Below, piece after piece: positions 5,411 through 59,811 of a stretch of DNA of 64,000 bases. The position numbers and the translations under genes were made by a program. The notes under the pieces were generated by a model. That model worked only from the letters and a program-made list of their open reading frames with translations. It had not been told where the DNA came from and made no database searches. Position 1 is the first letter of the stretch, and each line of letters begins with the position of its first letter. The DNA is from a bacterium (GTDB lineage: Bacteria > Patescibacteriota > Minisyncoccia > Phycocordibacterales > VMGT01): positions 15,583-79,582 of the forward strand of contig JAUYPI010000015.1 of NCBI GenBank assembly GCA_030697645.1. The letters run 5' to 3'.

Positions 5411-6616
5411 ATGACGTTCGGCGACTTACTTAGAACGCTGATGAAGGTCGTACGACGGCCGGTCTTTGGCACGCGTGGGCCGAGCGTTCTCGGAATAGAC
5501 TTCGGCACTTCCTCACTCAAGGTCGTGCAGGCGTATAAACAAGGCGGCAAGGCAATGCTTGAGACGTATGGGGCTGTCGCGCTTGGACCCTACGGCGGTG
5601 TCGAGGTCGGGCAAGCGACGCGTCTTAGTCCCGAGCAGGCGGCAGCGGCCCTTACAGACCTCTTCCGGGAGGCAAATGTAACGACGCGCCAGTGCGCAGT
5701 CGCGATCCCGCTCTCGGCGAGCCTCGTCTCGTTTATGCAACTGCCCGAGGTCTCCGAGAATGAGCTCACTACGATGGTGCCACTCGAGGCGCGTAAGTAC
5801 ATCCCGGTACCGCTCTCTGAGGTCTCGCTCGACTGGATGATCGTACCGGAGGTGCCCGCCGCGGGGGACCGGGCAGGGGGCGTTCAAGAGGGTGGCGCGT
5901 TTGGAGACAGTGACGCTCACACGCCCCGCTCGGCTTCGGGCGGGGCGAGAGAGGCAGAACGACGTAGTGCCGAACGCGTGGGTGTGCTTGTGGTCGCCAT
6001 TCACAACGAGGAGCTTGCACTCTACCGCGCGATTGGGAGAGCCGCCGCGCTCGCTGTGCATTTTGTGGAAGTGGAGATTTTTAGCGCGGTGCGCGCGGTA
6101 CTCCGACAGGGGATGGAGGTGGTGCTCGTGGTTGACGTCGGCGGACACACCACAAAGATGTATCTTGTGGAACGCGGTATAGTGAAGGGTACGCACAGTA
6201 TCAATCGCGGCTCGCAGCACATTACTGAGGCGCTCGCGCGTTCTCTCGGGATCCCCCTTACTGAGGCCGAGGAGCTGAAGCGGAGTGGCAAGATTGCGGA
6301 GAAGATGGGCGCTCGTACGCTCGAGGAGCTCGTGCCGACCCAGGTAGACCTTATTTTTGCAGAGATACGACGGCTTTTGATTCAGTATCAGCACCGCTCT
6401 CTGAGGGTTGTCTCGCACGCGATTTTTATCGGCGGCGGTGCGCTTCTTCCCGGTTTCCTCGATCGGGCGCGCGCGGTACTGCCGACCGAGGTCTCGCTCG
6501 GCGATCCGTTCCAGAAGCTCGAGGCGCCGGCGTTCCTTGAGGACGTGCTGCGACAGGCAGGGCCGGAGTTTGCGGTGGCCACGGGCTTGGCTCTCCGTGC
6601 GCTGGCGGAACAGTAG
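5411..6616 (+). CDS. pilM: Type IV pilus assembly protein PilM (actin-like ATPase)
   Basis: N-terminal LGIDFGTSSLKVV motif and a two-domain actin/FtsA-like fold pattern (VLVVDVGGHTTK). First gene of the pil cluster. Confidence 0.85.
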   Translation: MTFGDLLRTLMKVVRRPVFGTRGPSVLGIDFGTSSLKVVQAYKQGGKAMLETYGAVALGPYGGVEVGQATRLSPEQAAAALTDLFREANVTTRQCAVAIPLSASLVSFMQLPEVSENELTTMVPLEARKYIPVPLSEVSLDWMIVPEVPAAGDRAGGVQEGGAFGDSDAHTPRSASGGAREAERRSAERVGVLVVAIHNEELALYRAIGRAAALAVHFVEVEIFSAVRAVLRQGMEVVLVVDVGGHTTKMYLVERGIVKGTHSINRGSQHITEALARSLGIPLTEAEELKRSGKIAEKMGARTLEELVPTQVDLIFAEIRRLLIQYQHRSLRVVSHAIFIGGGALLPGFLDRARAVLPTEVSLGDPFQKLEAPAFLEDVLRQAGPEFAVATGLALRALAEQ

Positions 6617-6733
6617 CTCAAAAATTTTCAATTATCAATTTTATAATTTTTAATCAATTTTCAATTACTCAATTTTCAAACACGACGTCGTCCGTTATTG
6701 AAAATTGAAAATTGTAAATTGAAAATTATCACC
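6617..6733. repeat. Hairpin-array element (arm AATTTTCAAT / ATTGAAAATT, core CAAACACGACGTCGTCCGTT)
   Basis: Fills the whole pilM-pilN intergenic region and ends 3 nt before the ATG at 6734. The core contains the palindrome ACGACGTCGT. Confidence 0.8.
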
Positions 6734-7354
6734 ATGGACACTCGCTTCAAAACCACATTTATGTCGAAGCAGCCGATCATGGCGGCGTCGCAAAAGAGAC
6801 ATCGAACGCTCGGCCCGAGCGCCGATCTCCTCGGCATTGTCGTTTCCGGCATATTCGTCCTCGCGTTTCTCTTTGCTGCTGGCACGTTTCTCTACGAGCG
6901 TTTGTCGATCCGCCGCGTCGTCGTGCTGGAAAAAACACTCGCGGAGGCACGCGAGGCATTCGAACCTGCGGTGATCGAGGAGCTCAAGCGCGACGACGCG
7001 CGAATGAAGGCGGCCGAGGTGCTCGTTGCAGGTCACCGGGCAGCGACGCCGCTTTTTCGAGTTCTTGAGGACGAGACTCTTCGAAGTGTGCAGTACAGCT
7101 CGTTTGCCTATACGGTAGAGGGCGGGCCTGGGGGGAAACTCAAGCTCGATGGTAGAGCGCGAGGATTCCGTTCTGTTGCGCTCCAGGCAGATACCTTCGG
7201 TAGTCAGCCAGACCTGATCAATCCGGTATTTTCGAACCTCGATCAGGATGTGAAAACAGGGTTCGCGACGTTTGATTTCGAAGCACAAATCGGGAAGAGG
7301 CTTATGGATTATGGAGCGATGATTGAGAGTGAGGAGGGCGCTGGAAGGCAGTGA
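6734..7354 (+). CDS. pilN: PilN-like pilus assembly protein
   Basis: Short cytoplasmic N-terminus, a single TM (LLGIVVSGIFVLAFLFAAGTFL), then a coiled-coil periplasmic region. Positioned after pilM. Start taken at ATG 6734; the ORF track starts at 6698. Confidence 0.5.
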   Translation: MDTRFKTTFMSKQPIMAASQKRHRTLGPSADLLGIVVSGIFVLAFLFAAGTFLYERLSIRRVVVLEKTLAEAREAFEPAVIEELKRDDARMKAAEVLVAGHRAATPLFRVLEDETLRSVQYSSFAYTVEGGPGGKLKLDGRARGFRSVALQADTFGSQPDLINPVFSNLDQDVKTGFATFDFEAQIGKRLMDYGAMIESEEGAGRQ

Positions 7355-7399
7355 CCGTTTCTTATGAAAGTGCATGTTTTGTAGAATGGCTCGAACTGC

Positions 7400-7514
7400 C
7401 TCAATTATCAATGTTCAATTTTAAATTTTCAATCAATTTTCAATTACCAAATTTTCAAACACGACGTCGTCCGTTATTGAAAATTGAAAATTGTAAATTG
7501 AAAATTAATAATCC
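7400..7514. repeat. Hairpin-array element (same arm and core as 6617..6733)
   Basis: caattatcaatgttcaattttaaattttcaatcaattttcaattacc - caaacacgacgtcgtccgtt - attgaaaattgaaaattgtaaattgaaaatt. Ends 7 nt before the pilO ATG. Confidence 0.8.
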
Positions 7515-8135
7515 ATGAAGCCATTTATTTCCATTCTTATATTCGCCCTCAGTGTTGCCGTGGTGGTGTTCTATATCAAGCCAGCGTTGCCACGGATTAA
7601 GGCGCTCCGGCAGGATATCTTTTTTTTGGAGGATACGCTTGAGAGCGCGCGCGAGCTTCAGAGTGTGCGCGACAAGCTCCTCGCGAAGTATAACAGCTTC
7701 CCGCCGGATGATATTGAGCGGCTGCATAAGCTCCTGCCGGACAATGTTGATAATGTCCGCTTGATTATTGACATAGATGAGATGGCGAGCCGCTACGGCC
7801 TCACGATTCAGGATATAAACATTAAGCAGCAACAAGAATCGCGCGTGCGCACCGCCGGAGCGGCGGACGAGGAAGCGGAGGACTTTGGAACGAGTGCGCG
7901 CACGGCACGTGAAATGTCGGAGGCGGCGGAAGGACTCGTTGAGCCGAAGCTCTCATTCCTCACGCTTTCATTTAGTGTGGTTGCGTCCTACGAGCGGTTT
8001 CTCGCCTTCCTCCGTGACATGGAGCGGAGTCTGCGGATTGTTGACGTCACCGAGCTTTCGTTCGAGTCGGGCAAAGACGCCGCGACCAAGGGGCACCTGT
8101 TTAAGGTGGCGGTGAAGACGTACTGGCTGCAATAG
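7515..8135 (+). CDS. pilO: PilO-like pilus assembly protein
   Basis: N-terminal TM (FISILIFALSVAVVVFYI), coiled coil, and a C-terminal domain. Gene order is pilM-N-O. Confidence 0.5.
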   Translation: MKPFISILIFALSVAVVVFYIKPALPRIKALRQDIFFLEDTLESARELQSVRDKLLAKYNSFPPDDIERLHKLLPDNVDNVRLIIDIDEMASRYGLTIQDINIKQQQESRVRTAGAADEEAEDFGTSARTAREMSEAAEGLVEPKLSFLTLSFSVVASYERFLAFLRDMERSLRIVDVTELSFESGKDAATKGHLFKVAVKTYWLQ

Positions 8136-8136
8136 T

Positions 8137-8328
8137 ATGAAAATTTTCAATTTTCAATTTTGCAATTTTCAATCAATTTCCAAGTACTCAATTTTCAAAC
8201 ACGACGCCGTTCGTCATTAAGTCATTGCAGCATTGAAAATTTATTGAAAATTGTAAATTGAAAATTATGAACACCGGCGCTTGGTTTGACATTTGAGTTT
8301 GCTCCAATTTCGGATTTTAATTTGTTGT
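8137..8328. repeat. Hairpin-array element (AATTTTCAAT family)
   Basis: aattttcaattttcaattttgcaattttcaatcaatttccaag... core caaacacgacgccgttcgtcatt ... attgaaaatttattgaaaattgtaaattgaaaatt. Ends at the ATG of the next gene. Confidence 0.75.
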
Positions 8329-8697
8329 ATGGCTCTCGTAAAAAAATATTGGCTCGCACTTGTGGTAACCGCTGTCCTCGGCGCGGGTGCTCTGGCGTAC
8401 ACACTGTTCCGTTCTTCCGAGGTCACCGAGCTCGCATCGAGCGAGTCGAAGGATCCGGTTGTCGCCGCGCAGAGCGCCGAGACGCTCGAACTTTTGAGCA
8501 ACCTCAAAAGATTGAGCTTTGACGAGGCGCTCTTCCGCGATCCACGCTTCAGAAGCCTTATTGATTTTAGCGTTGAGCTCACGCCGGAGCCCAAGGGGAG
8601 GCGCAACCCCTTTTTGCCGTTTAGCGACGAGGGTGGCGGCGCGGCGGGCACCAGCACGTCCGCTCTGGTAGCAACGTCTACACGCTCTCTCCCATGA
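8329..8697 (+). CDS. Hypothetical pilus-associated protein (PilP-like position)
   Basis: About 122 aa with an N-terminal TM (YWLALVVTAVLGAGALAY). Sits between the pilO-like gene and pilB. Identity is inferred only from context. The ORF track starts at 8293. Confidence 0.35.
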   Translation: MALVKKYWLALVVTAVLGAGALAYTLFRSSEVTELASSESKDPVVAAQSAETLELLSNLKRLSFDEALFRDPRFRSLIDFSVELTPEPKGRRNPFLPFSDEGGGAAGTSTSALVATSTRSLP

Positions 8698-8739
8698 GCG
8701 GCGGGAACAGCGCTGTAGCATAAGAAGTGTAAAACGCAA

Positions 8740-8927
8740 AGCGAAAAGCGAAAAACAACAGCACAAAATTTCAAGCTCCAACCAACAAGCTCCAAACAAA
8801 TTCCAATGATTCAAATCTCAATCTCGAAACACGCCGGTTTGAGATTTGAGATTTGGAATTTGAGGTTTATTTGGAAGTTGTTTTTTGGAATTTGGAAATT
8901 CGTTTTCTTTGCGCTTTTCATTTCTGT
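8740..8927. repeat. Composite hairpin-array element (outer arms GCAAAGCGAAAA, inner arms ATTTCCAA / TTGGAAAT, core GAAACACGCCGGTTTGAG)
   Basis: Nested inverted repeats: acgcaaagcgaaaagcgaaaaacaacagcacaaaat...ttccaa... core ...ttggaatttgag...ggaaattcgttttctttgcgc. Ends at the pilB ATG (8928). Confidence 0.75.
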
Positions 8928-10658
8928 ATGAGTTACCTTTCAGTATTAGCAGACAAGGGCTTGCTTAACTCAGAGGACCTCGCGGCCCTTGAAGAGGAGA
9001 TGGTCATCGCGCCCGAGAAGATTGAAGACGGGCTTGTCGCGCGCGGCGTCAGTGCTGAGCAGGTGCTCCGCGCGAAAGGCGGGTACTTCGGACTTCCCGT
9101 GCGTTCGATTTCGAACGAGAAAATCCCCGATGAGATATTGAAGTATATTCCACAGGAATCAGCCCGGCACTACCGCGTTCTACCGCTCGCGCTTGCGGAC
9201 GGCGTCCTTGAGGTCGGCATTGTTGATCCGGAGAATTTCGAGGCACGTGACGCGATTAGTTTCCTCGCGTCAAAAAATCATGTCCCGTTTAAATTTTTTC
9301 TCATATCGCGTGATGATTTTGATCGCGCACTGCGTACGTACGAAGGGCTCACCGCCCAGGTTGGGGAGGCACTCGAGGAGTACGAGACCGAGCTTGGCGG
9401 CGAGGAAGAGGCGATCAGCAAAGCCGCGGAGGATGTCTCGGGGGCGCCGCTTCCTGGGGGCGAGGTGACGACCATCGAGGAAGCGCCGGTGACGAAAATT
9501 GTTGCAACGATCCTTCGCTATGCGATTGAGGGCGGGGCTTCCGACGTCCATATCGAGCCCACGCTCGAGCGCGTACGGGTGCGGTTTCGCGTTGATGGCA
9601 TTTTGCACACGAGCCTCATTTTGCCGATTAAGGTGCACCGCGCCGTGGTAGCGAGGATCAAGGTGCTCTCGAACATAAAACTTGACGAAAAACGCAGACC
9701 GCAGGATGGTCGATTCTCCGCGCGTATCTCGGGGCGCAAGGTCGATTTTCGAGTTTCCTCTTTTCCAGCCTCCGGCGGCGAAAAGGTGGTGCTGCGCATC
9801 CTTGATCAGGAACGAGGTGTGAAGACACTCGAGGGGATCGGCATGCGCGACTCGCATCTCTCTCTCGTGCGGCAGGCGCTGAAGATGCCCTATGGCATGA
9901 TCCTCATCTCCGGTCCGACCGGTTCGGGAAAGTCAACGACGCTCTATGCGATGCTCCAGGAGGTGGATCGCGAGAAGCTGAACGTGGTGAGCCTTGAGGA
10001 CCCGGTAGAGTACCATATCGATGGCGTCGCGCAGTCGCAGGTGATGCCCGAGATCGGATTTACGTTCGCCTCGGGACTCCGTTCTGTACTGCGACAGGAC
10101 CCGGATGTCATCATGGTCGGCGAGATTCGCGACCGCGAGACCGCACAGCTTGCGATCCAGGCCGCGCTCACCGGACATATCGTTTTTTCGACGCTTCACA
10201 CGAACACCGCGGCAGGTGCCATACCGCGACTTATTGATATGGGGGTGGACCCCTATCTTATCGCGCCAACCGTGGTGCTCGTCGTCGCGCAGCGTCTGGT
10301 GCGCACACTCTGCGCCGGGGCGGGCCGTGCGGTCGCCATCGACGGTAGCATTAAACTGATGCTTGAGAAGCAGTTTGCCGACATGCCGAATGCGCATCGC
10401 GATAGGCTGCCTTTGGGAAAAGAAGTATACGAGGCATCGCCGACCCCCGAGTGCGCTTCGGGCGTGCGGGGACGCACCGCCGTCTTCGAGATGTTTCGTA
10501 TGACGAAAGAGCTTGAACGGGTGATTCTCGAAACGCCGACCGAGTCGAGTGTCTATCAACATGTGCGCGAGGTGCAAGGGATGCTCACCATGAAAGAGGA
10601 TGCTATACTGAAGTCATCCGAGCGTATCGTGCCGTTTGAGGAGGTAAATACACTGTGA
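8928..10658 (+). CDS. pilB: Type IV pilus assembly ATPase PilB (GspE family)
   Basis: Walker A LISGPTGSGKSTTLYAML, GspE N-terminal domain, Asp box, His box (HIVFSTLHTN) and the tetracysteine-region equivalent. Start taken at ATG 8928, just after the repeat; the ORF track extends to 8853 inside the repeat. Confidence 0.9.
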   Translation: MSYLSVLADKGLLNSEDLAALEEEMVIAPEKIEDGLVARGVSAEQVLRAKGGYFGLPVRSISNEKIPDEILKYIPQESARHYRVLPLALADGVLEVGIVDPENFEARDAISFLASKNHVPFKFFLISRDDFDRALRTYEGLTAQVGEALEEYETELGGEEEAISKAAEDVSGAPLPGGEVTTIEEAPVTKIVATILRYAIEGGASDVHIEPTLERVRVRFRVDGILHTSLILPIKVHRAVVARIKVLSNIKLDEKRRPQDGRFSARISGRKVDFRVSSFPASGGEKVVLRILDQERGVKTLEGIGMRDSHLSLVRQALKMPYGMILISGPTGSGKSTTLYAMLQEVDREKLNVVSLEDPVEYHIDGVAQSQVMPEIGFTFASGLRSVLRQDPDVIMVGEIRDRETAQLAIQAALTGHIVFSTLHTNTAAGAIPRLIDMGVDPYLIAPTVVLVVAQRLVRTLCAGAGRAVAIDGSIKLMLEKQFADMPNAHRDRLPLGKEVYEASPTPECASGVRGRTAVFEMFRMTKELERVILETPTESSVYQHVREVQGMLTMKEDAILKSSERIVPFEEVNTL

Positions 10659-10731
10659 GCTTGGAGAGTAGAGGGTAGACACGGATAAAACGGCACTGAG
10701 TTGCCCGTCCCACTTTCCACTTTCTCGTCAC

Positions 10732-11121
10732 ATGAGCGAAAATGAAAAACAAAAAAAGCAACTCCTGCTTATTGATGACGATGAGTTTCTCATTGATATG
10801 TACTCCACGAAGTTTACGGGGGCAGGGTTCGCTGTTATGGCGATGCGGAGCGTAGATGAGGCCCTCGGGAAGCTGCGTGAAGGGTACACACCTGCCATTA
10901 TCCTTCTTGATCTTGTCATGCCCACGGTTGGCGGCATTGCATTTTTGAAAGCGAGGCGAGATGAGCGCCTTGCGCCTGATGCGGTCGTCATTGTGCTCTC
11001 AAATCAGAGTGATGAGGCGCGCATCGAGGAGGCGAAGAAGCTTGGGGCGAAGGGATATATTTTGAAAGCGAACACCGTACCGTCGGAGGTATTAGAGCAG
11101 GTGCAGGCGCTTGCGGGTTAA
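10732..11121 (+). CDS. Single-domain response regulator (CheY/PilH-like receiver)
   Basis: 129 aa with receiver-domain acidic pocket residues (LLIDDDE...LLDLVMP) and a conserved K near the C-terminus. Sits between pilB and pilT. Confidence 0.7.
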   Translation: MSENEKQKKQLLLIDDDEFLIDMYSTKFTGAGFAVMAMRSVDEALGKLREGYTPAIILLDLVMPTVGGIAFLKARRDERLAPDAVVIVLSNQSDEARIEEAKKLGAKGYILKANTVPSEVLEQVQALAG

Positions 11122-11232
11122 TTTTCAATGCTCAATTTTCAATCAATTTACAATGGTCCAATTTTCAAACACGACGTCGTTCATCTATTGAAACATTGAA
11201 AATTGAAAATTAGAAATTGAAAATTTTCGTCT
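11122..11232. repeat. Hairpin-array element (AATTTTCAAT family)
   Basis: ttaattttcaatgctcaattttcaatcaatttacaatggtcc - aattttcaaacacgacgtcgttcatct - attgaaacattgaaaattgaaaattagaaattgaaaatt. Ends 9 nt before the pilT ATG. Confidence 0.8.
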
Positions 11233-12294
11233 ATGGATTACCACAAAGAATTCGAAAGGCTGGTGGAGATTATCTCGAATGAGAACGCGTCCGATCTCCA
11301 CCTTGCAGAAGGGCGTAACCCGATCATCCGCGTGGGGAGCTTCCTCGCGCCACTTTTGAAGTGGCCGGCACTCACGCGCGAGAACATGGAAGGCTATATG
11401 GGAGTTTTGCTATCGAAGAAGAATGAGGCACGATTCCTTGAAACGCGCGAGGTTGACTTTTCGTTTGGTTTACGCGACGTGATGCGTTTCCGCGGGAACG
11501 GGTACATGCAGCGGGGGCTTCTCTCGTTCGCGCTTCGCGTGATCCCGCGCGAAATCCGTACACTTGCGGAGCTCGGCCTTCCGCCGATACTCGAAACATT
11601 TGCGGGACGGCGGCAGGGGTTTTTTCTGGTTGTGGGGCCGGTGGGGCAGGGCAAGAGCACGACGCTCGCTTCGATGGTAGAGATCATTAACCGCACCCGC
11701 GCCGAGCATATCATCACGATCGAGGATCCAATCGAGTATATCTATGAACCCAAGAAGGCTATTATTGATCAGCGGGAAGTGCGCATTGATACCGGCGACT
11801 TCAAAACCGCCCTCCAATCAACATTCCGCCAGGATGTCAATGTGATTCTCGTCGGGGAGATGCGCGATCCTGAGACCATGGCGACGGCAGTGACCGCGGC
11901 GGAGACGGGACACCTCGTTTTCTCGACGCTCCACACGAATAATGCTTCACAGACCGTGGATCGCATCATTGACTCATTCCCAGCGACCCAGCAGGAGCAA
12001 ATCCGCACACAGCTTGCAGGATCGCTCCTCGGCATATTCTCGCAGCGGCTCCTGCCGCGGATCGCGGGCGGGCTCTCTCCGGCCTATGAGCTTCTCGTGA
12101 ATACCCCCGCGACTGCGAATCTCATCCGTGAGGGGCGGACCCATGAACTGCCCTCGGCCCTCGAGACCGGTTCCGAGCATGGGATGGTGGCGCTCAACCG
12201 CTCGCTCGCCGAACTCGTTGGCGCGGGAGAGATCTCGGTGGAGGATGCCTATACGCATTCGTATAATCCGCAGGCGTTGGAGAAGATGCTCTAA
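11233..12294 (+). CDS. pilT: Twitching motility ATPase PilT
   Basis: Walker A VVGPVGQGKSTTLASMV, followed by IITIEDPIEY and the AIRNLIRE-like region (ATANLIREGRTHEL). 353 aa. Confidence 0.9.
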   Translation: MDYHKEFERLVEIISNENASDLHLAEGRNPIIRVGSFLAPLLKWPALTRENMEGYMGVLLSKKNEARFLETREVDFSFGLRDVMRFRGNGYMQRGLLSFALRVIPREIRTLAELGLPPILETFAGRRQGFFLVVGPVGQGKSTTLASMVEIINRTRAEHIITIEDPIEYIYEPKKAIIDQREVRIDTGDFKTALQSTFRQDVNVILVGEMRDPETMATAVTAAETGHLVFSTLHTNNASQTVDRIIDSFPATQQEQIRTQLAGSLLGIFSQRLLPRIAGGLSPAYELLVNTPATANLIREGRTHELPSALETGSEHGMVALNRSLAELVGAGEISVEDAYTHSYNPQALEKML

Positions 12295-12359
12295 AACGAA
12301 ATTGCTCGACCTGTCACCTGTCGAGGCGGCATGGTTCAAGGTTGCCTGGAGGAGTGCCG

Positions 12360-12531
12360 GCACGAGAAATTTTCAATTTCCAATTTTCAATTTCCAATCA
12401 ATTTTTAATTACTCAATTTTCAAACACGTCGTCGCCATTGAGTCATTGAAGCATTGAAAATTTATTGAAAATTGCTCATTGAAAATTGAAAATTAAAAAT
12501 GTCTGCCTTTGGTTTCCCCCTTTAGCATTTC
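12360..12531. repeat. Hairpin-array element (AATTTTCAAT family)
   Basis: gaaattttcaatttccaattttcaatttccaatcaatttttaattactcaattttcaaacacgtcgtcgccattgagtc ... attgaaaatttattgaaaattgctcattgaaaattgaaaatt. Confidence 0.75.
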
Positions 12532-13773
12532 TTGCGATTGTCTAGGATTTTTGATACTGGTATGCTTTTTCGATACACTGCCTATGACGCGGCTGGTCAG
12601 GAGTGCTCGGGCGAAATTGAGGCCGTGAGTGCGGATATTGCGGTCGGCACACTCCAACACCGCGGGCTTGTGATCGCCTCCCTTGAGGAGGCGGCGGGTG
12701 GCGGGGGGCTTTTTGCGGCGAAGCTCACATTTTTCGACCGCGTTACCACCAAGGACCTCGTGATTCTCTCGCGGCAGATCGCGACTCTCTTCGAGGCGCG
12801 GATATCTGCGCTCCGTATATTTCAGATGCTCGCATCGGACGCGGAGAAGCCGATCCTCCAGCGGATATTAGGGCAGATTGTTTCTGACATCCAGGGTGGC
12901 AGCTCCCTGTCCATGGCACTGGGGAAACACCCACGGGTGTTTTCGGCGTTTTATATCAATATGGTCGCCGCTGGCGAGGAATCAGGGAAGATTAACGATG
13001 TCTTCATGTACCTCGCGGATTATTTTGACCGCTACTACCAGGTCACGGCAAAGATTCGCGGCGCGATGGTGTACCCTGCGTTCATTCTCACCGCCTTCGT
13101 GGGCGTGATGGTGCTCCTTCTGACGCAGGTCATCCCGCAGCTTGCGGACGTGCTGCGCGAGGCAGGGCAGGGAGTGCCTATCTACACACGGGTCGTTATC
13201 GGCATGAGCACCCTACTCGTTGACTACGGCGTGTTCGTGGCGGCTGGCGTGATTGGGCTTGGGTTTGCGCTCTGGCGGTATCGTGCCGCAGAGGGCGGCC
13301 GTGTGGCGTTTGACCGTCTTGAGATATCGGTCCCTATTTTTGGGCGTCTTTTCAAACTCCTCTATCTCTCGCGCATCGCTGACAATCTCCATACCATGCT
13401 TGCCGCGGGCGTCCCCATGGTGCGCGTGCTCGAGGTCTCATCATCGGTCGTCGACAACGTGGTCTACGAGACGATTCTCAAGGACGTCGTCGAGGCGGTG
13501 CGCGGCGGCGCGTCGGTCTCGGAGTCCTTCGGCCGCTACGAGGAGATACCCGGCATCATGGTGCAGATGATCAAGGTCGGCGAGGAGGCGGGAGAGGTAG
13601 GCACCATCCTGAAGACACTTGCGGTATTTTATCAGCGCGAAGTGAATAGCGCCGTCGACAGCTTGATTTCGCTTATTGAGCCGGCACTGGTCATGATCCT
13701 CGGCGGCGGCGTCGGCATCGTTGTTGCATCGGTGCTGATACCCATTTACAATATCGCGACGAGTATACAGTAG
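12532..13773 (+). CDS. pilC: Type IV pilus inner-membrane platform protein PilC (GspF family)
   Basis: Two GspF repeats with three TM segments. 12532 is a TTG; the first in-frame ATG is 12562 (MLFRYTAYDAAG) and is probably the true start. Confidence 0.85.
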   Translation: MRLSRIFDTGMLFRYTAYDAAGQECSGEIEAVSADIAVGTLQHRGLVIASLEEAAGGGGLFAAKLTFFDRVTTKDLVILSRQIATLFEARISALRIFQMLASDAEKPILQRILGQIVSDIQGGSSLSMALGKHPRVFSAFYINMVAAGEESGKINDVFMYLADYFDRYYQVTAKIRGAMVYPAFILTAFVGVMVLLLTQVIPQLADVLREAGQGVPIYTRVVIGMSTLLVDYGVFVAAGVIGLGFALWRYRAAEGGRVAFDRLEISVPIFGRLFKLLYLSRIADNLHTMLAAGVPMVRVLEVSSSVVDNVVYETILKDVVEAVRGGASVSESFGRYEEIPGIMVQMIKVGEEAGEVGTILKTLAVFYQREVNSAVDSLISLIEPALVMILGGGVGIVVASVLIPIYNIATSIQ

Positions 13774-15025: not shown

Positions 15026-15631
15026 ATGGGACAGTTGGCGTGGAATTGCCAGTTTTTTCAGTACCTGCAACAGATCGATCAGCTCGCCGAGAAAATGCGG
15101 AACGATAAGGAGCTGGTTCGAAGCGTTGAGCATGCAACCCAGTGCCTGATTTCTACCCTGGGCACTGGCCACAAGATCCTCATTGCCGGCAATGGCGGCA
15201 GCGCGGCGCATGCGCAGCACTTTGCGGCCGAGCTCGTGGGTCGCTTTGCGAGGGCGCGACGGGCGCTGCCAGCACTCGCGCTCACGACCGACACCTCGAT
15301 CATCACGGCGTGGAGCAATGATTTTTCGTTTGAGGATGTGTTTGCGCGGCAGATCGAGGCGCTTGGCGCACAACGCGATATTTTTCTCGCCCTCTCAACG
15401 AGCGGTAATTCTTCGAACGTGATAGTCGCACAGAACGCGGCAAAGTTGCGAGGCCTTAGGATGCTGTGCCTTTTGGGCAAAGGCGGCGGCAAGCTTCTCG
15501 AAGCGTGTGAGCTCGAAGACTGTATTGTCGTGCCGTCGGACAACACGCAGCTTATCCAGGATGCGCATCAGTGGATTTTGCATCATTGGTGCGCGGCAAT
15601 TGATGAGGCGTTCTCGTCGATGGAGCGGTAG
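15026..15631 (+). CDS. gmhA: Phosphoheptose isomerase (SIS domain) GmhA
   Basis: SIS-domain motifs ILIAGNGGSAAHAQHFAAEL and FLALSTSGNSSNVI. About 190 aa. Confidence 0.7.
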   Translation: MGQLAWNCQFFQYLQQIDQLAEKMRNDKELVRSVEHATQCLISTLGTGHKILIAGNGGSAAHAQHFAAELVGRFARARRALPALALTTDTSIITAWSNDFSFEDVFARQIEALGAQRDIFLALSTSGNSSNVIVAQNAAKLRGLRMLCLLGKGGGKLLEACELEDCIVVPSDNTQLIQDAHQWILHHWCAAIDEAFSSMER

Positions 15632-15704: not shown

Positions 15705-16703
15705 ATGATGAATAGCGGTGCGCAGGGGTTGAGAGACATTGTTCTATCCTGGCAGGGCAAGCGCATCGGGGTGATCGGCGACGTGATGCTCGACCACTAT
15801 ATTGAGGGCGAGGTCACAAGAATTTCCCCCGAGGCACCGGTGCCGATCGTGAACGTCAAGCGGGAGTGGTATGCCCCTGGCGGTGCGGCGAATGTTGCGG
15901 CGAATATCGCCTCACTCGGCGGGGAAGTTGAGCTCAGTGGCGTGATCGGCGTTGATGAGGCGGGGGACCAGCTGGTGCGTGAGCTTAAAAAGCGCGGTGT
16001 GAGTTTTCGCGCTACGTGTTTCCCCGACCGTCCCACAACGGAGAAGACCAGGATTCTGGTAGGCAATCAACAGTTGGTGCGCATTGATCGAGAAGCGTGT
16101 ACATCAGTTGATTCCGGGCGTATGCAGCAACTATGGAATGAGCTCGTGGATTGGAAGCAGGCGTGGGACGTGGTTGTAATTTCTGACTACGCGAAGGGCG
16201 TTCTCGCCACGGGTCTCCCTCCGCACATCATTGAATGTGCGCGTCGGCGTCAGAAGCCAGTCATCGGCGATGCGAAACCACAGAACATCAGGGCGTTTTA
16301 TGGCGCCACGGTTTTAATGCCGAACGAATTGGAGATGCGCGCCGTTTTAGAGGGGCTGCATGTCGAGAATTATTGCGCTGCTGCAAAGACGCTCGAGACT
16401 TTATTTTTGGTGACACTTGGCGAGAAAGGTATGGTGTCTGCTGACGCGGAGTCGATAGAGGAGTATCCGACGATACCACGCGATGTGTCCGATAATGTCG
16501 GCGCGGGCGATACTGCGACAGCGGCAGTTGCGCTTGCACTTGCCTTTGGTACCGCGATTCCTGACGCCGCTCGAATCGCAAACGCCGCCGCTGGTGTCGT
16601 CGTCGGCAAGCGTGGCACGGCAACGGTCTCGACCGATGAGCTGCTTGCGGCGCTTGATGAGATGGGCGTGCATGAAATGCACCCGCCGTCTCGGCCGTCG
16701 TGA
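15705..16703 (+). CDS. hldE: D-beta-D-heptose 7-phosphate kinase (RfaE/HldE domain I, PfkB family)
   Basis: PfkB carbohydrate-kinase pattern GVIGDVMLDHYIEGEVTRISPEAPVPIV...GGAANVA with a C-terminal GAGDT motif (VGAGDTATAA). Sits next to gmhA. Confidence 0.75.
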   Translation: MMNSGAQGLRDIVLSWQGKRIGVIGDVMLDHYIEGEVTRISPEAPVPIVNVKREWYAPGGAANVAANIASLGGEVELSGVIGVDEAGDQLVRELKKRGVSFRATCFPDRPTTEKTRILVGNQQLVRIDREACTSVDSGRMQQLWNELVDWKQAWDVVVISDYAKGVLATGLPPHIIECARRRQKPVIGDAKPQNIRAFYGATVLMPNELEMRAVLEGLHVENYCAAAKTLETLFLVTLGEKGMVSADAESIEEYPTIPRDVSDNVGAGDTATAAVALALAFGTAIPDAARIANAAAGVVVGKRGTATVSTDELLAALDEMGVHEMHPPSRPS

Positions 16704-16786
16704 GGCGGCGAAAAATCGTCCTCCAAGCCTGTAAAACGTTACGGGGCAGCTTCTTATTCTAAGAAGCTGCCCCCCTTTTTCGATCT

Positions 16787-17962
16787 TTACGCGAGGAGCT
16801 CAGCGAAGCGACGCCTGTCTTCTATATGCTGCCGAAGGTATTGCATGTAGGGAGTTCCGCCCGTCCCGACATCAGATCGGTTGTATGCACTCGAGTGCGC
16901 CGTCTGATCCTGAATGTAACGTTGCGGATAGCCGAAGTGTATTTCGGAAAATTCCACCATGAGCATCAGAGAGCGATGGAGTTCCTCGCACAGTGCCGGG
17001 TACGTCCTCTGGCAGCCAAGCGCGTAGAGGAGGAGCGATTCGTCTCCTTGTTGGGTCAGAATGGCGAGATCCTTGAGATACTGCCGATGGTGCGATGGCA
17101 TATAATTTGGCATGTCCCGCAAATACTCAGCGAATGCTCCGTCAGTTCGGTGCGGGATGCCAAAAGCGCAGTCGAGAGCAGGAACGATGAGACTTTGTGA
17201 TCCGCTCTCGCCCCAGAAATCCTGCGGTACGTCATCCCAAAAACCGCTGTAGATGACGGGGTGCAGGCGGAAACCCTGGATGTACGGACGCACCATGCTG
17301 AAATACGCTCCCGGATTACAGTGCTCGGGCATGCGTCTGAGGTGCGCATTCATTTTTTCGAGGATCCCTGCGCATTCCCTCAAGAGTGTAATCATCCTTA
17401 CTGCGTCATCGGCAATCCGCGCGTGGTGGAGTTCGGCGAGGAGCGACGGGATCCGTGCGGCAGACGCTTCAATGGCAACATGGATTGCGTTAAACCATCT
17501 GGCATCTTCTGTGCGCAGAAAATACTGCTGCAGTTCGATGTTGTCCGGCTCCAGTTTTCCGTCCGGATCAATGAGCTCCCAGTTCCAGAGCAGGAACGGC
17601 GCGTAGGAGAGAATGGACTTCATGCCGAGACGCCTCGCAAGGTAGACGAGGACTGCTGAGAGCGGTGACTTGATGGACGCCGTCGGAGGCGTCGCACCCC
17701 ATACCCACGCGGCTCCGAGAAATGTTGCCGTGCGGAATAAAAGACGCGCCTGTGCCGGCGGCATCGGTTTCTCCAATGCTTTCTTCGTTATCGCAAGTCG
17801 TGCGATTTCGTCGCACGCGGTGCCGCGGAGGAGGAGCTCGGGAAGGCGTTGTGCAACTTCGAGCCATTCGTCGAACGGCGGTTGTAGGCTATCGGCGCAT
17901 CGCTGAAGGCAGCCAAGCTCTGTGTCGATACCGTAGAGTTCCGAGAAGATTTTGTGATCCAC
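16787..17962 (-). CDS. Indoleamine 2,3-dioxygenase (IDO)-family heme dioxygenase homolog
   Basis: FWDDVPQDFWGESGSQSLIVPALDCAFGI...EYLRDMPNYMPSHHRQYLKDL matches the IDO core FWEDPKEFAGGSAGQSS..FDVLLGI...FLQDMRRYMPPAHRNFL, including the proximal His region. 391 aa. The family match is from memory, not a search. Confidence 0.65.
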   Translation of the reverse strand: MDHKIFSELYGIDTELGCLQRCADSLQPPFDEWLEVAQRLPELLLRGTACDEIARLAITKKALEKPMPPAQARLLFRTATFLGAAWVWGATPPTASIKSPLSAVLVYLARRLGMKSILSYAPFLLWNWELIDPDGKLEPDNIELQQYFLRTEDARWFNAIHVAIEASAARIPSLLAELHHARIADDAVRMITLLRECAGILEKMNAHLRRMPEHCNPGAYFSMVRPYIQGFRLHPVIYSGFWDDVPQDFWGESGSQSLIVPALDCAFGIPHRTDGAFAEYLRDMPNYMPSHHRQYLKDLAILTQQGDESLLLYALGCQRTYPALCEELHRSLMLMVEFSEIHFGYPQRYIQDQTAHSSAYNRSDVGTGGTPYMQYLRQHIEDRRRFAELLA

Positions 17963-18163
17963 TGGCTACTCCTTTAAGGAAGAGTGGTTATTGTCGGGTG
18001 GGGAACAGACGCTCACCATATGCTAGCGATTCTTGTTTTTTTTGTCAATCATAGGACATACGGTCGGCGATCAGGACACGTGTAACGATGGCACTTGATC
18101 GCCTCGAAATAGAGGCGGTCGTAGAGGAAGTTGCGAACATGATCTTCGGCGGTCACCTGGACG

Positions 18164-19570
18164 TTGCTCTCGCCCGTGCAGTGGTTGACCTCTCGTTTGT
18201 TTTCGTCTATAAAACTGGAGATGACTTCCAGCTTAAAATACGTAGTCAAGACCGCTGCATTTCTCGCGGTGCCGTATGCTCTGACTGCTGCGATTATCTA
18301 TCTTGCGTTCTCAACGACCTATAGGCCGATTGAGGAATACAGGATTGTTCGGTTCGTCGTTGTCCTCTTCTTCGTGCCGGTAGTCTTGAAGTATGCGCTT
18401 CACCTACTTGTTGCACCGTTTTATCCCGTGGTCGAGTCCTCTCAGGCAAGACGATTACGATCCGCCATGCTGTCGGTGTCCGTGCTTATACCAGCGTATA
18501 ACGAAGAGGTTGGCATACAAACGACGCTGCGATCAGTGCTTGCCACCGCGTACCCACATCTCGAGATCATTGTCATCAACGATGGATCAACCGATCGCAC
18601 ACACCGCCTTGTCGTGGACTTTATTCGACACCAGAGGAAGACACAGTCGTCTCCAGCCACGATACGATACCGCCAGATAGTAAACGGCGGCAAGGCGCGC
18701 GCACTAAACGTCGGCCTATCCATGGCACACGGCGATATCGTCATTACGATTGACGCCGACAGTGTCATGGGCAAGGACGCCATAGTCAACATGGTGCGGC
18801 GCTTTACGCACTCGCGAGTGGCGTCTGTCGCCGGCAACGTTGCCATAGGCAACAAGCATGGTCTTCTCGGACTGGTTCAGCAGCTCGAATATCTCTACGG
18901 ATTTTATTTCAAGCGTGCGGATGCGCTTTTGAACGCAGTCTATATCGTCGGCGGCGCTGCAGCTGCGTATCGTCGGGATGTGATTGAGGCACTCGGCGGA
19001 TTCGACGAGCACACTATCACAGAAGATATCGAGCTTTCCACACGTCTGCAAGATCACGGCTATATGGTTCGCTACGCTGCAGACGCGTGTGTGCTGACCG
19101 AGGGGCCCGAAACGTTTTCCGGGCTCTGTCGGCAGCGATTGCGTTGGAAGTTTGGCCGGCTGGTGACGTTCTATAGATACCGCCACCTCTTTTTCAGCAC
19201 TGATCATCACCATAGTTTTTTCCTAAGCTTTGTGATTCTCCCGATGGCGCTGTTTGCGGAGTTTCTTCTCTTGCTCCAGGGCGCCCTGCTAACAATCTTT
19301 TATATCTATATAGTGCGCACGAACGACTTTATTCCACTCATGGTCGTGATTATACTGCTGACGTGTATCATTATCTGGCAAATTTTGTCGGATACCCAGT
19401 CGCGCTACCATCGGAATCTGTTTTTGCTCGCCCCAGTCGCGTGGTTCCTTTTTTATCTGCTAGATATCGTAGAATACCAGGCGTTGATTCGGAGCATGTG
19501 GAATCTCCACCGTCGACGGCGTCCTTTGTGGCAGAGATGGAATCGTGTCGGCGTTTTCAGCGCGACGTAA
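18164..19570 (+). CDS. Family 2 glycosyltransferase, membrane-embedded (PgaC / cellulose-synthase-like)
   Basis: GT2 motifs VLIPAYNEE, INDGSTDRT, D-x-D (TIDADS), and Q-x-x-RW (CRQRLRWKFG), flanked by N- and C-terminal TM helices. The likely start is ATG 18221. Confidence 0.75.
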   Translation: MLSPVQWLTSRLFSSIKLEMTSSLKYVVKTAAFLAVPYALTAAIIYLAFSTTYRPIEEYRIVRFVVVLFFVPVVLKYALHLLVAPFYPVVESSQARRLRSAMLSVSVLIPAYNEEVGIQTTLRSVLATAYPHLEIIVINDGSTDRTHRLVVDFIRHQRKTQSSPATIRYRQIVNGGKARALNVGLSMAHGDIVITIDADSVMGKDAIVNMVRRFTHSRVASVAGNVAIGNKHGLLGLVQQLEYLYGFYFKRADALLNAVYIVGGAAAAYRRDVIEALGGFDEHTITEDIELSTRLQDHGYMVRYAADACVLTEGPETFSGLCRQRLRWKFGRLVTFYRYRHLFFSTDHHHSFFLSFVILPMALFAEFLLLLQGALLTIFYIYIVRTNDFIPLMVVIILLTCIIIWQILSDTQSRYHRNLFLLAPVAWFLFYLLDIVEYQALIRSMWNLHRRRRPLWQRWNRVGVFSAT

Positions 19571-19783
19571 GCCCTTCTTCTTCCTGTGTGCGTGTCGCCG
19601 TCCTTGCACACCACAGGTTGTCGTGGTCACCCCAGCTGCATCGGCTATAGTGGCGAGCATGACATGCGCCCACCATGAGCGATCTTTACTACGTTAACCG
19701 CCCATGCGCATGACGCGCATGGGCGCCGCTCTGTCCGTTTTCTACATTGGCCAGTCTTTGCGTTCGAGCGCGCCCACGGTACA

Positions 19784-20404
19784 ATGATTCGTGGACTGTA
19801 TTGGGTATCCTACAAGGAGGTGAAAATGGCAAAGATCCAAAATAGAGTGATGCGCTCGGTCGTGGGCGCATTTTCTCATGGGGTCGGAAAATATAGCGAA
19901 GAAAAGGAGTGCGGCGAGGCGATACACTGGACTCGGAGTGGTGGAAGTATTGGCCGTGAAAGGCGTCGCGCCTACTACCGGCTGCTCGAGAATTATGCGC
20001 AGGATTACTGCCTCTGGGCGCGGGAGCATGTCGTCGTCCTGCTTCGAAAAAAGTTCGTATTTTACCAAATGCCGGGTGGGGTGACGGAGAGTAGCGGCTG
20101 TTTTGCCTCGGAGGCGGTTCAGGACTTTTGCGTGTTCGCTTGGAATGCGCTCGCTGGTTTGCGTCTTCTGTGCAACCCGCGTCGACTGCTCTCTATAGAC
20201 AAGAGCGTAGGAGCACGCATGCTCGAGCAGGCTCTTGCCGGCCTGAAGACGCTCTTTGAGCTCTGCCGACCGCTTCTCACCGGCGAGGCACTGCGACGTG
20301 TTTTTCGCAAATTTCGTCTCTGGTGGCACGAGTGGTGCGTACACGTGAGAGGCCTGCGCGAGCTCATCCGTATATACTGGCCTCCATCATCCTCCGGCTC
20401 GTGA
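19784..20404 (+). CDS. Hypothetical protein
   Basis: 206-aa ORF with a hairpin terminator after it (cccgcccgcgca-tttttt-gtgcgggcggg at 20412..20445). No recognisable domain. Confidence 0.35.
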   Translation: MIRGLYWVSYKEVKMAKIQNRVMRSVVGAFSHGVGKYSEEKECGEAIHWTRSGGSIGRERRRAYYRLLENYAQDYCLWAREHVVVLLRKKFVFYQMPGGVTESSGCFASEAVQDFCVFAWNALAGLRLLCNPRRLLSIDKSVGARMLEQALAGLKTLFELCRPLLTGEALRRVFRKFRLWWHEWCVHVRGLRELIRIYWPPSSSGS

Positions 20405-20553: not shown

Positions 20554-20582
20554 TTGACCGCGCGCGGGGCTTCGGCTATAGT
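20554..20582 (+). promoter_or_regulatory. Candidate rRNA promoter (TTGACC-17 nt-TATAGT)
   Basis: Near-consensus sigma-70 -35 and -10 hexamers with a 17-nt spacer, about 180 nt upstream of the 16S 5' end. Confidence 0.4.
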
Positions 20583-20764
20583 AGCTAGGCGGTGTCTTCA
20601 AGGCATGCGCGCGAGAGTTCTTTGACAACAGAATAAGCATACACACAAGACAAAGCAAAAACAAAACGTCTATTCCTTAAAAAAACAGAGAGCAGAAGAA
20701 GTTGTTCCTTCTTTTGTTCCGTCCACAAATAGGGAGGTTGGAGATACTCCAACTTCTATAATTT

Positions 20765-20803
<39 letters not shown>

Positions 20804-20851
20804 GATAAGGCATGCAAGTCATACGGGCCGCACCTCATTGCATTCGGTGCG

Positions 20852-20990
20852 GAATTTTCAATTTTCAATTTTACAATTTTCAAATAATTTCCAATGATTA
20901 AATTTCCAATTTCCAAACACGACGTCGTCGGCGTTTGAAAATTGACCCATTGAAAATTTATTGAAAATTGAAAATTGATAATTGAAAATT
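20852..20990. repeat. Hairpin-array element (AATTTTCAAT family) inserted in the 16S V1 helix
   Basis: Same arm unit and core (caaacacgacgtcgtcggcgtt) as the pil intergenic copies. Flanked by hairpins ccgcacctcattgcattcggtgcgg and gccgcaccgagtgtggcgaggtgcggc. Confidence 0.8.
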
Positions 20991-21190
20991 CCGCCGCACC
21001 GAGTGTGGCGAGGTGCGGCTAGTGGCGAACGAGGCAGTAATACGCAGGAACGTACCCTGGAGACGGGCATAACCAGCCGAAAGGTTGGCTAATTCCCGAT
21101 GGTCCGAGCACATATTTTTGGAGAAAAACAAAAGGCGCATCCTGTACCTGTATAGATACTTTGGATGCGCCCTGCAACATTGAGCGGTTT

Positions 21191-21310
21191 CTAGAGGAAC
21201 AGGAAAGTAGCAATCATTACGGCGATGATACCGACTAAGACCCAAGACATCCAACGAAGCTGACTTGGGCCATAGTCTATTCTTCCGCTCTGTCCTCTCG
21301 CGATTTTCAT
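21191..21310 (-). CDS. Candidate 39-aa single-TM peptide antisense to the 16S V2 insertion
   Basis: aggaggTCGTCatg SD-ATG, then MKIARGQSGRIDYGPSQLRWMSWVLVGIIAVMIATFLFL. It is below the 60-aa cut-off of the ORF track. Coordinates are approximate to a few nt. Confidence 0.3.
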   Translation of the reverse strand: MKIARGQSGRIDYGPSQLRWMSWVLVGIIAVMIATFLFL

Positions 21311-22157
21311 GACGACCTCCTTTTTCGCTGAAGAAAGAAAAGCATAGGGGTCTATATATTGTCAAGTATCTTACTTGGCTTCCAAAAATATGTGCTCGGT
21401 AAAGGAGCAATCTGCTCCGGGAGCGGCCTGCGGGCTATCAGCTAGTTGGTGGGGTAACGGCCTACCAAGGCTCTGACGGCTAGGGGGGGTGAGAGCCCGA
21501 TCCCCGCCGATGACACTGCGACACGGGTCATACACCTACGGGTGGCAGCAGCCGAGAATATTCGACAATGGGCGAAAGCCTGATCGAGCGACGCCGCGTG
21601 GTGGATGAAGCACTTCGGTGCGTAAACACCTTTTATGAGGGAAGAAGTTCGCCGCACCTCATTGCATTCGGTGCGGACATTTCGATATATCGAAATTTCG
21701 AAATATCGAAATGTCCGCCGCACCGAGTGCAGCGAGGTGCGGCGGATTGACGGTACCTCATGAATAAGGGGCTCCTAATCACGTGCCAGCAGGAGCGGTA
21801 ATACGTGAGCCCCAAGCGTTATCCGGAATCACTGGGCGTAAAGGGTGTGTAGGCGGCCGCGTTAGTCCTCCGTTAAATCCCACGGCTCAACCGTGGAGCT
21901 GCGGAGGATACGGCGCGGCTTGAGGGCGCGAGAGGTGTGCGGAACTCACGGTGTAGGGGTGAAATCCGTTGATATCGTGGGGAACACCAAAAGCGAAGGC
22001 AGCACACTGGCGCGCCCCTGACGCTGAAACACGAAAGCGTGGGTAGCGAAGCAGATTAGATACCTGCGTAGTCCACGCCCTAAACTCTGTCCGCTAGCTT
22101 TTCGGAGTATCGACCCTCTGGGAGGCGAAGCTAACGCGTTAAGCGGACCGCCTGGGA

Positions 22158-22189
<32 letters not shown>

Positions 22190-22722
22190 AGACGGGGACC
22201 AGCACAAGCGGTGGATCATGTGGTTCAATTCGATGGTAAACGAAGAACCTCACCAGGGCTTGAAATCCAGATGAACTCGCCTCGAAAGGGGTGCGGCCTT
22301 CACAAGAGGCATCTGGACAGGTGCTGCATGGTTGTCGTCAGTTCGTGGCTTAAGTTGTTCCCTTTAGTGGGGTAACGAACGCAACCCCCGTCGCCTGTTA
22401 TACGTGTCAGGCGAGACTGCCCAGCCCAAAGTGCGGCTCACTTCGGTTCGCCGCAGAATCAAGAAGTATGAAGTATGAAGTATGGAAATGTACGAAGAAA
22501 AACCATAATTCATGATTCATAATTCTTGCTTCTGCATCGAGCGGAGCGAGATGCATTTCGGGCTGGGAGGAAGGCGGGGATGACGCCAAATCAGCATGGC
22601 CCTCTGACGCCCTGGGCTACACACGTGATACAATGGCCGGTACAACGGGTCGCGACGGGGTAACCCTGAGCCAATCCTTATAAAGCCGGCCTCAGTTCGG
22701 ATTGAGGTCTGCAACTCGACCT

Positions 22723-22757
<35 letters not shown>

Positions 22758-23610
22758 TATACTGCGGTGAATACGTTCTCTGGTCTTGTACTCACCGCCC
22801 GTCATGCTAAGGGAGCCGGGAATACCCGAAACCCCGCCCTTTGCTCGCGGAGCAAAGGGCGGGATATATCGAAATTTTGAAATATCGATATGTCCCGCCC
22901 TTTGTTCACTTCGTGAACAAAGGGCGGGGTTACGGTAAGCTCGGTGACAGGAGCAAAGTCGTTGAGACATACTGTCTTGTTGCGACCTATGTGAGCGATC
23001 ACATAGTAAAACCCAACTGATATCGGTGAACCCCAGCGTACACAATTCACAATTTCTAATTTCAATTTTGAATTAGTCATTGAGAATTCGTAGTTGCGCC
23101 AGCTGGGCAATACCGAGGGAAGCCCACTAGGAGCTAGTTTTTTAACTGGTAACTAGTTGCGGCCCCGTAGAGACTTCCTGCACTTTTCTAGAAGTAGAAG
23201 GCGCAGGGGATGGCGTTGAAAAATTCACGCTATAAAACGTTGGCCCCAGCCGTAAAGTTTCCTAAAGAAACATTACGGCTGGGTGAAGATATAGTCCGTG
23301 CCTCAATGTAAATTGAGGGTAACACATGAACAAGGCACCGGTAGCGGAAGCTGTTGGTGGAATCATTCCTAGATCCCGTCCCAAGGCGCGTAAAGCGCGC
23401 CATGTTTAAATATTTAAATGTTTAAACATGGCCAAAATTCGCTTTGCGAATTTTGGCGAGGACTGATCAGGTCGGTCCGAGGGTGGAAGTTTTTCTTCCA
23501 TTCCTCGGAATCATGCTGTGGCTGTCAGCTAAACCAGCTAGCGGAGTTAGATGCAAATTTAGCTTCCAACCGTGGACGGAACAAAAGAGGGAACAAAAAA
23601 CACTCAAAAA

Positions 23611-27766: not shown

Positions 27767-27821
27767 GTAGTTACCCTCCTTCCGTAATTTTGCGAGGCCG
27801 CTTCATCTTCTGATGCGTGCC

Positions 27822-27860
27822 ACGGCCCGAGCTATTACCTTGCTCGGGCCGTTTCCTTTT
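27822..27860 (+). terminator. Intrinsic terminator of duplicated unit 2
   Basis: ggcccgagc-tattacctt-gctcgggcc plus gtttccttttg. Confidence 0.55.
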
Positions 27861-27985
27861 GTAAAAGTGGACATCTAAAAGTGGACATCGGATGTCCACC
27901 AAATGTCCACCAATTTATTCAAAGCGTAAAAAATCCGGGCAACCACGGCTGTGGTTGCCCGGATTCTCCTTGCCCGCGATCGTTT

Positions 27986-28228
27986 TTAAATGATCCCCGC
28001 CTTTTTCAGTGTTGCGTAGGCACCATTTCTATTGATGGTTTTGATCGCGCGCGTGGAGAGCTCGAGGCGCACGGTTCTGCCGAGCTCCGGCACAAAAAAT
28101 CTTTTCTTCTGCAGATTCGGCTGTCGGCGGCGTTTGCCCGTCGGGTTGAACTGCGTCGCGCGTGTGCGGTTCGAATATCCGCCGCCGACTTGTGAAGATT
28201 TATGGGTAATGGGACACGATCTTGCCAT
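27986..28228 (-). CDS. rpmB: 50S ribosomal protein L28
   Basis: The 80-aa product MARSCPITHKSSQVGGGYSNRTRATQFNPTGKRRRQPNLQKKRFFVPELGRTVRLELSTRAIKTI matches the L28 pattern (M.R.C..TGK....GN..SHA.N.TKRRF.PNL). The ORF track extends it spuriously to 28468. Confidence 0.8.
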   Translation of the reverse strand: MARSCPITHKSSQVGGGYSNRTRATQFNPTGKRRRQPNLQKKRFFVPELGRTVRLELSTRAIKTINRNGAYATLKKAGII

Positions 28229-28277
28229 ATGATTTTCGCATACTATCACGACAGATACCACTATGCAATTCGTTTTT

Positions 28278-59760: not shown

Positions 59761-59811
59761 AAAATTTTACAGATTTGAGATTTGAGTTTAATACGGTGTT
59801 ATACTAACCGC

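Follow-up and report, generated by a model that had tools for sequence, protein, structure and literature searches.

An indoleamine 2,3-dioxygenase family gene on a contig of a Parcubacteria-type bacterium

A 64,000-nt stretch of contig JAUYPI010000015.1 (assembly GCA_030697645.1, positions 15,583 to 79,582), referred to here as the window, was analysed for a minus-strand gene at 16787..17962 whose product resembles indoleamine 2,3-dioxygenase (IDO). The gene starts with GTG, encodes a 391-aa protein and was assigned to the IDO family of heme dioxygenases (PF01231) by profile, structure and alignment evidence. A membrane glycosyltransferase gene of the GT2 family is divergent from it, and two genes resembling those for ADP-heptose synthesis lie on the other side. 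In the sequence clusters searched, the window protein was annotated only as 'hypothetical protein' of a metagenome-assembled genome named 'bacterium'.

The profile search showed that the protein matched PF01231 with an E value of 1.9e-53 and 182.2 bits (gathering cutoff 26), and the match was full length, covering profile positions 3-405 of 412. The sequence-only reading of this DNA had called the protein an IDO homologue, and the search bore this out. The closest solved structures found by phmmer among PDB chains were human IDO1 (E 1e-34) and IDO2 (E 1e-23). The AlphaFold2 model, for which a 46-sequence alignment was the input, had a mean pLDDT of 91.8 and a pTM of 0.91. Foldseek comparison of the model with human IDO1 and IDO2 crystal structures (PDB 5WMU, 6E46, 9UYY) gave TM scores of 0.85-0.88 and rmsd values of 2.3-2.9 Å, and model and comparison together showed the two-domain all-alpha IDO fold. 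Judged by its sequence and predicted structure, the protein belongs to the IDO family. It adds a member to a known family of enzymes, in an unusual host, and represents neither a new system nor a new mechanism.

Active-site residues were compared in two multiple alignments, one of 18 sequences (the protein and 17 homologues) and one of 46 sequences (the protein and 45 homologues). His342 aligned with His346 of human IDO1 (hIDO1), the proximal heme-ligand histidine, and was invariant in both alignments; the surrounding motif is EIHFGYPQRYI here and SYHLQIVTKYI in hIDO1. The pairwise phmmer alignment had placed a Met opposite hIDO1 His346, as if the ligand were lost. This was rejected as a local misalignment, because the window protein has a shorter stretch from the proximal His to the GTGG loop (8 residues fewer than in hIDO1). 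The histidine whose loss the sequence-only reading had regarded as fatal to the IDO assignment is retained in the multiple alignments.

The substrate-pocket residues were retained as well. Tyr120 (hIDO1 Y126), Phe157 (F163), Asp264 (D274) and the JK-loop sequence Gly366-Thr367-Gly368-Gly369 (G378-G381, the GTGG loop) were invariant in the 46-sequence alignment, and Thr367 corresponds to the substrate-contacting T379. Arg225 (R231), the carboxylate anchor, was conserved in at least 90% of the 46 sequences; one member of the window protein's own clade (P0005) has Trp at this position. Gln256 and Ser257 correspond to hIDO1 Q266 and S267 and close the GESGSQS loop (residues 251-257), which aligned with hIDO1 G261-S267, in agreement with its earlier description as a GGSAGQS-like block. 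This is the bacterial form of the loop, with G251, G254 and Q256 invariant; Glu at the hIDO1 G262 position is common to most other bacterial IDOs, and alphaproteobacterial-type sequences have Gln. At the position of hIDO1 S167 stands His161, a distal histidine like that of tryptophan 2,3-dioxygenase (TDO), which was invariant in all 46 prokaryotic sequences aligned. Clade-specific substitutions were F123 (C129 in hIDO1), L124 (V130), N158 (F164), W250 (A260) and S339 (R343).

The window protein thus shares with hIDO1 the proximal His, R231, Y126, F163, D274, T379 with the GTGG loop, and Q266/S267, but the two are only about 25% identical and differ by Ser167 to His, G262 to Glu and A264 to Gly. 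The window protein is expected to carry out the same reaction as TDO (KynA), and a distal His is present in both enzymes; in TDO this His contacts the substrate. However, TDO is a different sequence family, tetrameric and single-domain, and the window protein gave no TDO profile match. Bacterial distal-His IDOs, from sequences labelled Bacteroidia, Planctomycetes, Henriciella and Sphingomonas, have the same length and domain layout as the window IDO and share its motifs, namely IHVAIE at the distal His, the GE(T/S)G(A/S)QS loop, RPYI(H/Q)G at the Arg, H..Y..YI at the proximal His and the VGTGGT loop. The window clade differs from them in its Patescibacterium host and in sequence, with only 32-39% identity. 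Its signature includes GC-L where the others have GF-LP near the N-terminus, F123/WNW in place of Y/DNW, and W250; in addition, five residues are missing after the RPYIQGF motif, and a helix region is inserted around 300-316.

Contig features fit Patescibacteria (the candidate phyla radiation, CPR) of the Parcubacteria/Paceibacteria type. The PheS protein shared 55-60% identity with sequences labelled Parcubacteria group, Paceibacterota, Vogelbacteria, Yonathbacteria and Minisyncoccia. The 16S rRNA gene and its intron region lie at 20758-23318, where the gene spans 2252 nt compared with 1533 nt in the model; it carries insertions of about 700 nt, and a group I intron match at 22954-23318 overlaps its 3' end. 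Insertions of this kind are typical of CPR rRNA genes. In GyrB (45108-48575, 1155 aa), the GyrB and Toprim domains are separated by an intein (Intein_splicing match, residues 485-908). Metabolic genes are very few in the window, which also holds a cluster for a type IV pilus. The earlier call of a CPR-type host was upheld by the PheS relatives, the 16S insertions with the group I intron, and the GyrB intein. A distance of 2.8 kb separates the IDO and 16S genes on the contig. Independent assemblies, GCA_034376905.1 among them, encode an identical IDO protein, and where its context was shown, the GT2 and PfkB-kinase neighbours were the same. Mis-binning or chimerism is unlikely because of this 16S linkage and the same arrangement in independent assemblies.

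Patescibacteria are thought to have been ancestrally without respiratory chains and to have very few oxygen-using heme enzymes (PMC7507113, PMC9166423). The earlier remark that a heme dioxygenase is unexpected in such a genome holds for this host. An intact heme dioxygenase gene under purifying selection is a further data point in favour of O2 handling and external heme acquisition by some CPR lineages. The window clade extends the known host range of IDO, and it is a further example in a family in which the function of most bacterial members is open.

With moderate confidence, the gene is read as coding for a functional heme dioxygenase acting on L-tryptophan or a close indole analogue. What favours a genuine dioxygenase of this kind is that the protein keeps the distal His and the Arg and Thr that anchor the amino acid. 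Heme loading, substrate and turnover are proposed by analogy. By comparison with IDO1 and TDO, the protein would be a soluble heme-b dioxygenase in which His342 ligates the heme iron. O2 would bind on the distal side, in a pocket lined by His161, Tyr120, Phe157 and the G251-S257 loop, while the substrate, L-tryptophan or a closely similar indole amino acid, would be held through its carboxylate and ammonium groups by Arg225 and Thr367 of the GTGG loop. The reaction would then add both atoms of O2 across the C2=C3 bond of the indole and so yield N-formylkynurenine. Since no downstream kynurenine-pathway enzyme is encoded nearby, the conversion probably goes no further than N-formylkynurenine or kynurenine. 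General CPR biology suggests that the heme is probably scavenged.

Several observations weigh against this reading. A scan of about 45 ORFs (open reading frames) in the 64-kb window found no kynurenine formamidase, kynureninase, KMO or HAAO, so the kynurenine-pathway genes that the sequence-only reading had suggested looking for were not found in this stretch, and no TDO was found in the same scan. The window showed no genes for making or taking up heme. For an auxotrophic symbiont, the destruction of tryptophan is expensive. Several pocket residues (F123, N158, W250, S339) are clade-specific, and the window protein is nearer to bacterial sequences labelled Sphingomonas and Henriciella (32-36% identity) than to human IDO1 (25%). 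According to the part of PMC4217691 that cites Yuasa et al. 2011, efficient tryptophan turnover is limited to a branch of mammal, fungal, Gemmatimonas and S. scabiei enzymes; most bacterial IDOs tested have very low tryptophan rates, and turnover is very low in those studied biochemically outside the mammal/fungal/Gemmatimonas branch, from Erythrobacter litoralis and Neptuniibacter caesariensis.

The main rival is that the protein is an IDO-fold hemoprotein without a catabolic role, which would shield an oxygen-sensitive fermenter by binding or consuming O2 or superoxide, serve as a sensor, or have other indoles as its substrates. Its parallels would be the low-efficiency bacterial and fungal-gamma IDOs and the molluscan IDO-like myoglobins. 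This explanation is possible but doubtful. The low rates of tested bacterial enzymes, the clade-specific pocket substitutions and the lack of kynurenine-pathway context in the window all point towards it. Two non-CPR bacterial IDO homologues on long contigs likewise stood alone, with no kynurenine-pathway gene beside them. Ancestral IDOs may have oxidised a broad range of indoles, and the molluscan IDO-like myoglobins, which have the IDO fold and no kynurenine-pathway role, lost tryptophan-oxidising activity altogether (PMC4191572). Stand-alone heme-dependent O2 enzymes also have precedent in Patescibacteria, where O2 reductases that depend on heme are rare and of horizontal origin (PMC7507113, PMC9166423). 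However, Arg225, Thr367 and the distal His are conserved under purifying selection, which argues for a tryptophan-like substrate and not a bare O2 carrier, and the window IDO, in contrast to the myoglobins (compared by description, not by sequence), keeps its substrate-binding residues.

A wider proposal is that the stand-alone IDO is an effector, fast-evolving and private to a small lineage of Parcubacteria. With scavenged heme, the enzyme would destroy tryptophan or indoles to manipulate or starve a host bacterium, or would make a kynurenine-type signal, perhaps with the cysteine-less TSCPD-like protein that sister genomes encode. This is unlikely. The tryptophan-depleting version can be likened to IDO1-mediated tryptophan depletion in mammalian immunity. 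The sequence-only reading had assigned the gene no definite role, and this assessment was upheld.

The clade to which the window protein belongs is very rare. A word-indexed search of 5.8 billion clusters returned the window protein itself and four relatives at 55-63% identity, and all further matches were at or below 39%. A sixth clade copy, frameshifted, was found on contig L017 (2352-3501), where it is split over two reading frames around nt 2950-3044 and is either a pseudogene or an assembly error. In a phmmer search of 1.84 billion 50%-identity representatives, one representative stood for the whole clade (547 bits), and the next match had 197 bits and 36% identity. The family as a whole comprised 1766 such representatives at E<=1e-3, including sequences labelled Bacteroidia, Planctomycetes, Pseudomonadota/Henriciella/Sphingomonas and haloarchaea. 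The earlier description of IDO as sporadic in bacteria therefore suits the window's particular clade, which is rare, but not the family, which is broad. Clade-specific peptide patterns found no clade members among GTDB species representatives, where they matched only haloarchaeal IDOs at 29-31% identity, and a pattern scan of JGI metagenomes gave nothing beyond the already known contig L003.

A neighbour-joining tree of 119 sequences, with human IDO1 as the root, showed the window clade as deep-branching and as monophyletic in 60 of 60 bootstraps, with its sister group not settled. The G+C content of the IDO gene (0.565) and of its third codon positions (0.64) were both within one standard deviation of the other window genes. 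Within the clade, the ratio of nonsynonymous to synonymous substitution rates (dN/dS) was about 0.08-0.15, with dS near saturation, and by this measure the gene is under purifying selection. The picture is of a gene that has long resided in one small lineage, evolves fast and is kept by selection, and not of a recent transfer.

That the gene was instead recently acquired by horizontal transfer, is chimeric through assembly or is a pseudogene in decay is scarcely credible. IDO is otherwise unreported in CPR, since the literature search brought up no paper on it or on kynurenine there and nothing relevant on the sample accessions, and the copy on L017 is frameshifted; both would suit such an origin. 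However, the phylogeny that the sequence-only reading had proposed as a check for horizontal acquisition, taken with the base composition within one standard deviation of the window genes, gave no sign of recent transfer: the clade is monophyletic and has no close donor, since the nearest sequences outside it are at most 39% identical. Against a pseudogene stand the intact ORF and the conserved catalytic residues, and against a chimera the same arrangement in independent assemblies.

The 5' region of the IDO gene (17963..18048, minus strand) carries a Shine-Dalgarno sequence, AAAGGAG, 6 nt before the GTG start, and a promoter-like site, TTGACA-17-TAGCAT, at 18048-18020, about 60 nt upstream of the Shine-Dalgarno sequence. 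The promoter-like site is a consensus match only, and such sites were not commoner in the region than in shuffled sequence (4 found, 3.2 expected). Between the convergent heptose kinase and IDO genes lies a 14-bp G+C-rich hairpin, GGGGCAGCTTCTTA-TTC-TAAGAAGCTGCCCC (16743..16773, no strand assigned), which is flanked by T-runs on both sides and is probably a bidirectional intrinsic terminator shared by the two genes. The IDO gene looks monocistronic and transcribed alone, because it has its own Shine-Dalgarno sequence and promoter-like site together with the hairpin terminator.

As described earlier, a membrane GT2 gene is the divergent partner of the IDO gene, at 18164..19570 on the plus strand and about 200 bp away. 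Its product matched PF00535/PF13641 at E values of about 2e-31 and carries motifs of the D,D,D / QxxRW type (TIDADS, ITEDIE, CRQRLRW). The best NCBIfam match was PgaC/IcaA (TIGR03937), at 208 bits below the cutoff of 422; the product did not qualify as a poly-beta-1,6-GlcNAc synthase of this type, and there were no pgaABD-like neighbours. The nearest solved structures were PcManGT and BcsA. From its sequence, it is classed as a generic membrane GT2 with processive-type motifs. Gene calls in other assemblies start later and give 433-449 aa.

The two heptose genes are a gmhA-like sedoheptulose-7-phosphate isomerase gene (SIS_2; 15026..15631, plus strand; best match TIGR00441, 174 bits, cutoff 209) and a gene for a heptose-7-phosphate kinase like HldE domain I (PfkB; 15705..16703, plus strand; best match 305 bits, cutoff 345). 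The sequence-only reading had placed both directly upstream of the IDO gene; they are present, but they lie on the plus strand and converge on its 3' end, so 'upstream' does not apply. No GmhB phosphatase or heptose-1-phosphate adenylyltransferase domain was found in scans of the window, and the heptose pathway appears locally incomplete. The window organism is expected to lack lipopolysaccharide.

A joint role of IDO with the GT2 and the gmhA/hldE products in a cell-envelope or glycoconjugate pathway could be imagined from their physical adjacency, which is repeated in other assemblies of the same population. Such a role is very improbable. None of the five related IDO loci (contigs L001-L004 and L017) has a GT2, gmhA or hldE neighbour, hldE and IDO converge on the probable terminator that separates them, and to our knowledge no chemistry links IDO with these genes. 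A conserved pairing of IDO with GT2 was rejected because the IDO genes of the relatives have other neighbours, and the pairing with the GT2 and ADP-heptose genes put forward by the earlier reading was not sustained. The GT2 and heptose genes are coincidental neighbours, and their pairing with IDO is local to the window genome.

Different gene orders were found on the related contigs. On L001, L003, L004 and L017 the order was tRNA-guanine transglycosylase (TGT), TSCPD-like gene, IDO and UvrB, with the TSCPD-like gene directly upstream of IDO on the same strand. On L002, IDO has Obg and a Na+/H+ exchanger for neighbours, along with an unannotated convergent ORF that is truncated where the contig ends. 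TSCPD-like genes (PF12637) were located at L001:1174-1707, L003:1513-2085, L017:1507-1944, L018:2232-2651 and L019:160-579. The protein resembles the C-terminal piece of class II ribonucleotide reductase (NrdJ) with the motif cysteines replaced (..KSVLDYVARWLE), and its family had only 6 close members in the 5.8 billion clusters. Contig L018 probably comes from a close relative of the window organism, because its TrxB-like gene is 89% identical at the amino acid level to that of the window; a TSCPD-like gene follows it, and the contig ends about 100 nt later.

These contigs raise the possibility that IDO functions with the upstream cysteine-less TSCPD-like protein and that the window genome lost or relocated this partner. 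The adjacency in four contigs and the comparable rarity of the two families (6 members in the IDO clade, 5-6 in the TSCPD-like family) would agree with this, but the proposal is quite unlikely. The four contigs share the wider TGT-TSCPD-IDO-UvrB synteny, and the adjacency, although real, counts as one syntenic lineage. On L018 the TSCPD-like gene adjoins the TrxB-like gene instead, L002 has none beside IDO, and the window has none at all, including at the position syntenic with L018. That position (27767-28277) is a gene-free gap of about 510 bp between convergent genes, with no detectable remnant. To judge by the rare genes that they share, the related contigs probably belong to the same lineage, and IDO would have been inherited within this small Parcubacteria-type lineage.

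Further features were seen in the window and on the related contigs. A 367-aa ORF at 3376-4479 gave a weak match to Queuosine salvage protein (PF10343), and on L017 and L001 the TSCPD-IDO pair is immediately preceded by the tRNA-guanine transglycosylase gene. At 19742-20404, shortly upstream of the 16S gene, each strand carries an ORF of about 200 aa; the two overlap and had no Pfam match. A promoter-like site lies near them at 20554-20582, and the region is probably a non-coding rRNA leader. A full type IV pilus set (PilM, PilO, PilB, PilT-like and PilC, with a response regulator) occupies 5411-13773, and a 965-aa VirD4/TraG-like coupling-protein ORF with weak matches lies at 59782-62679; together they are consistent with an epibiotic or DNA-uptake lifestyle. 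A 206-aa ORF at 32970-33590 matched the Translin family (PF01997; E 8.7e-9), which is mainly eukaryotic and archaeal.

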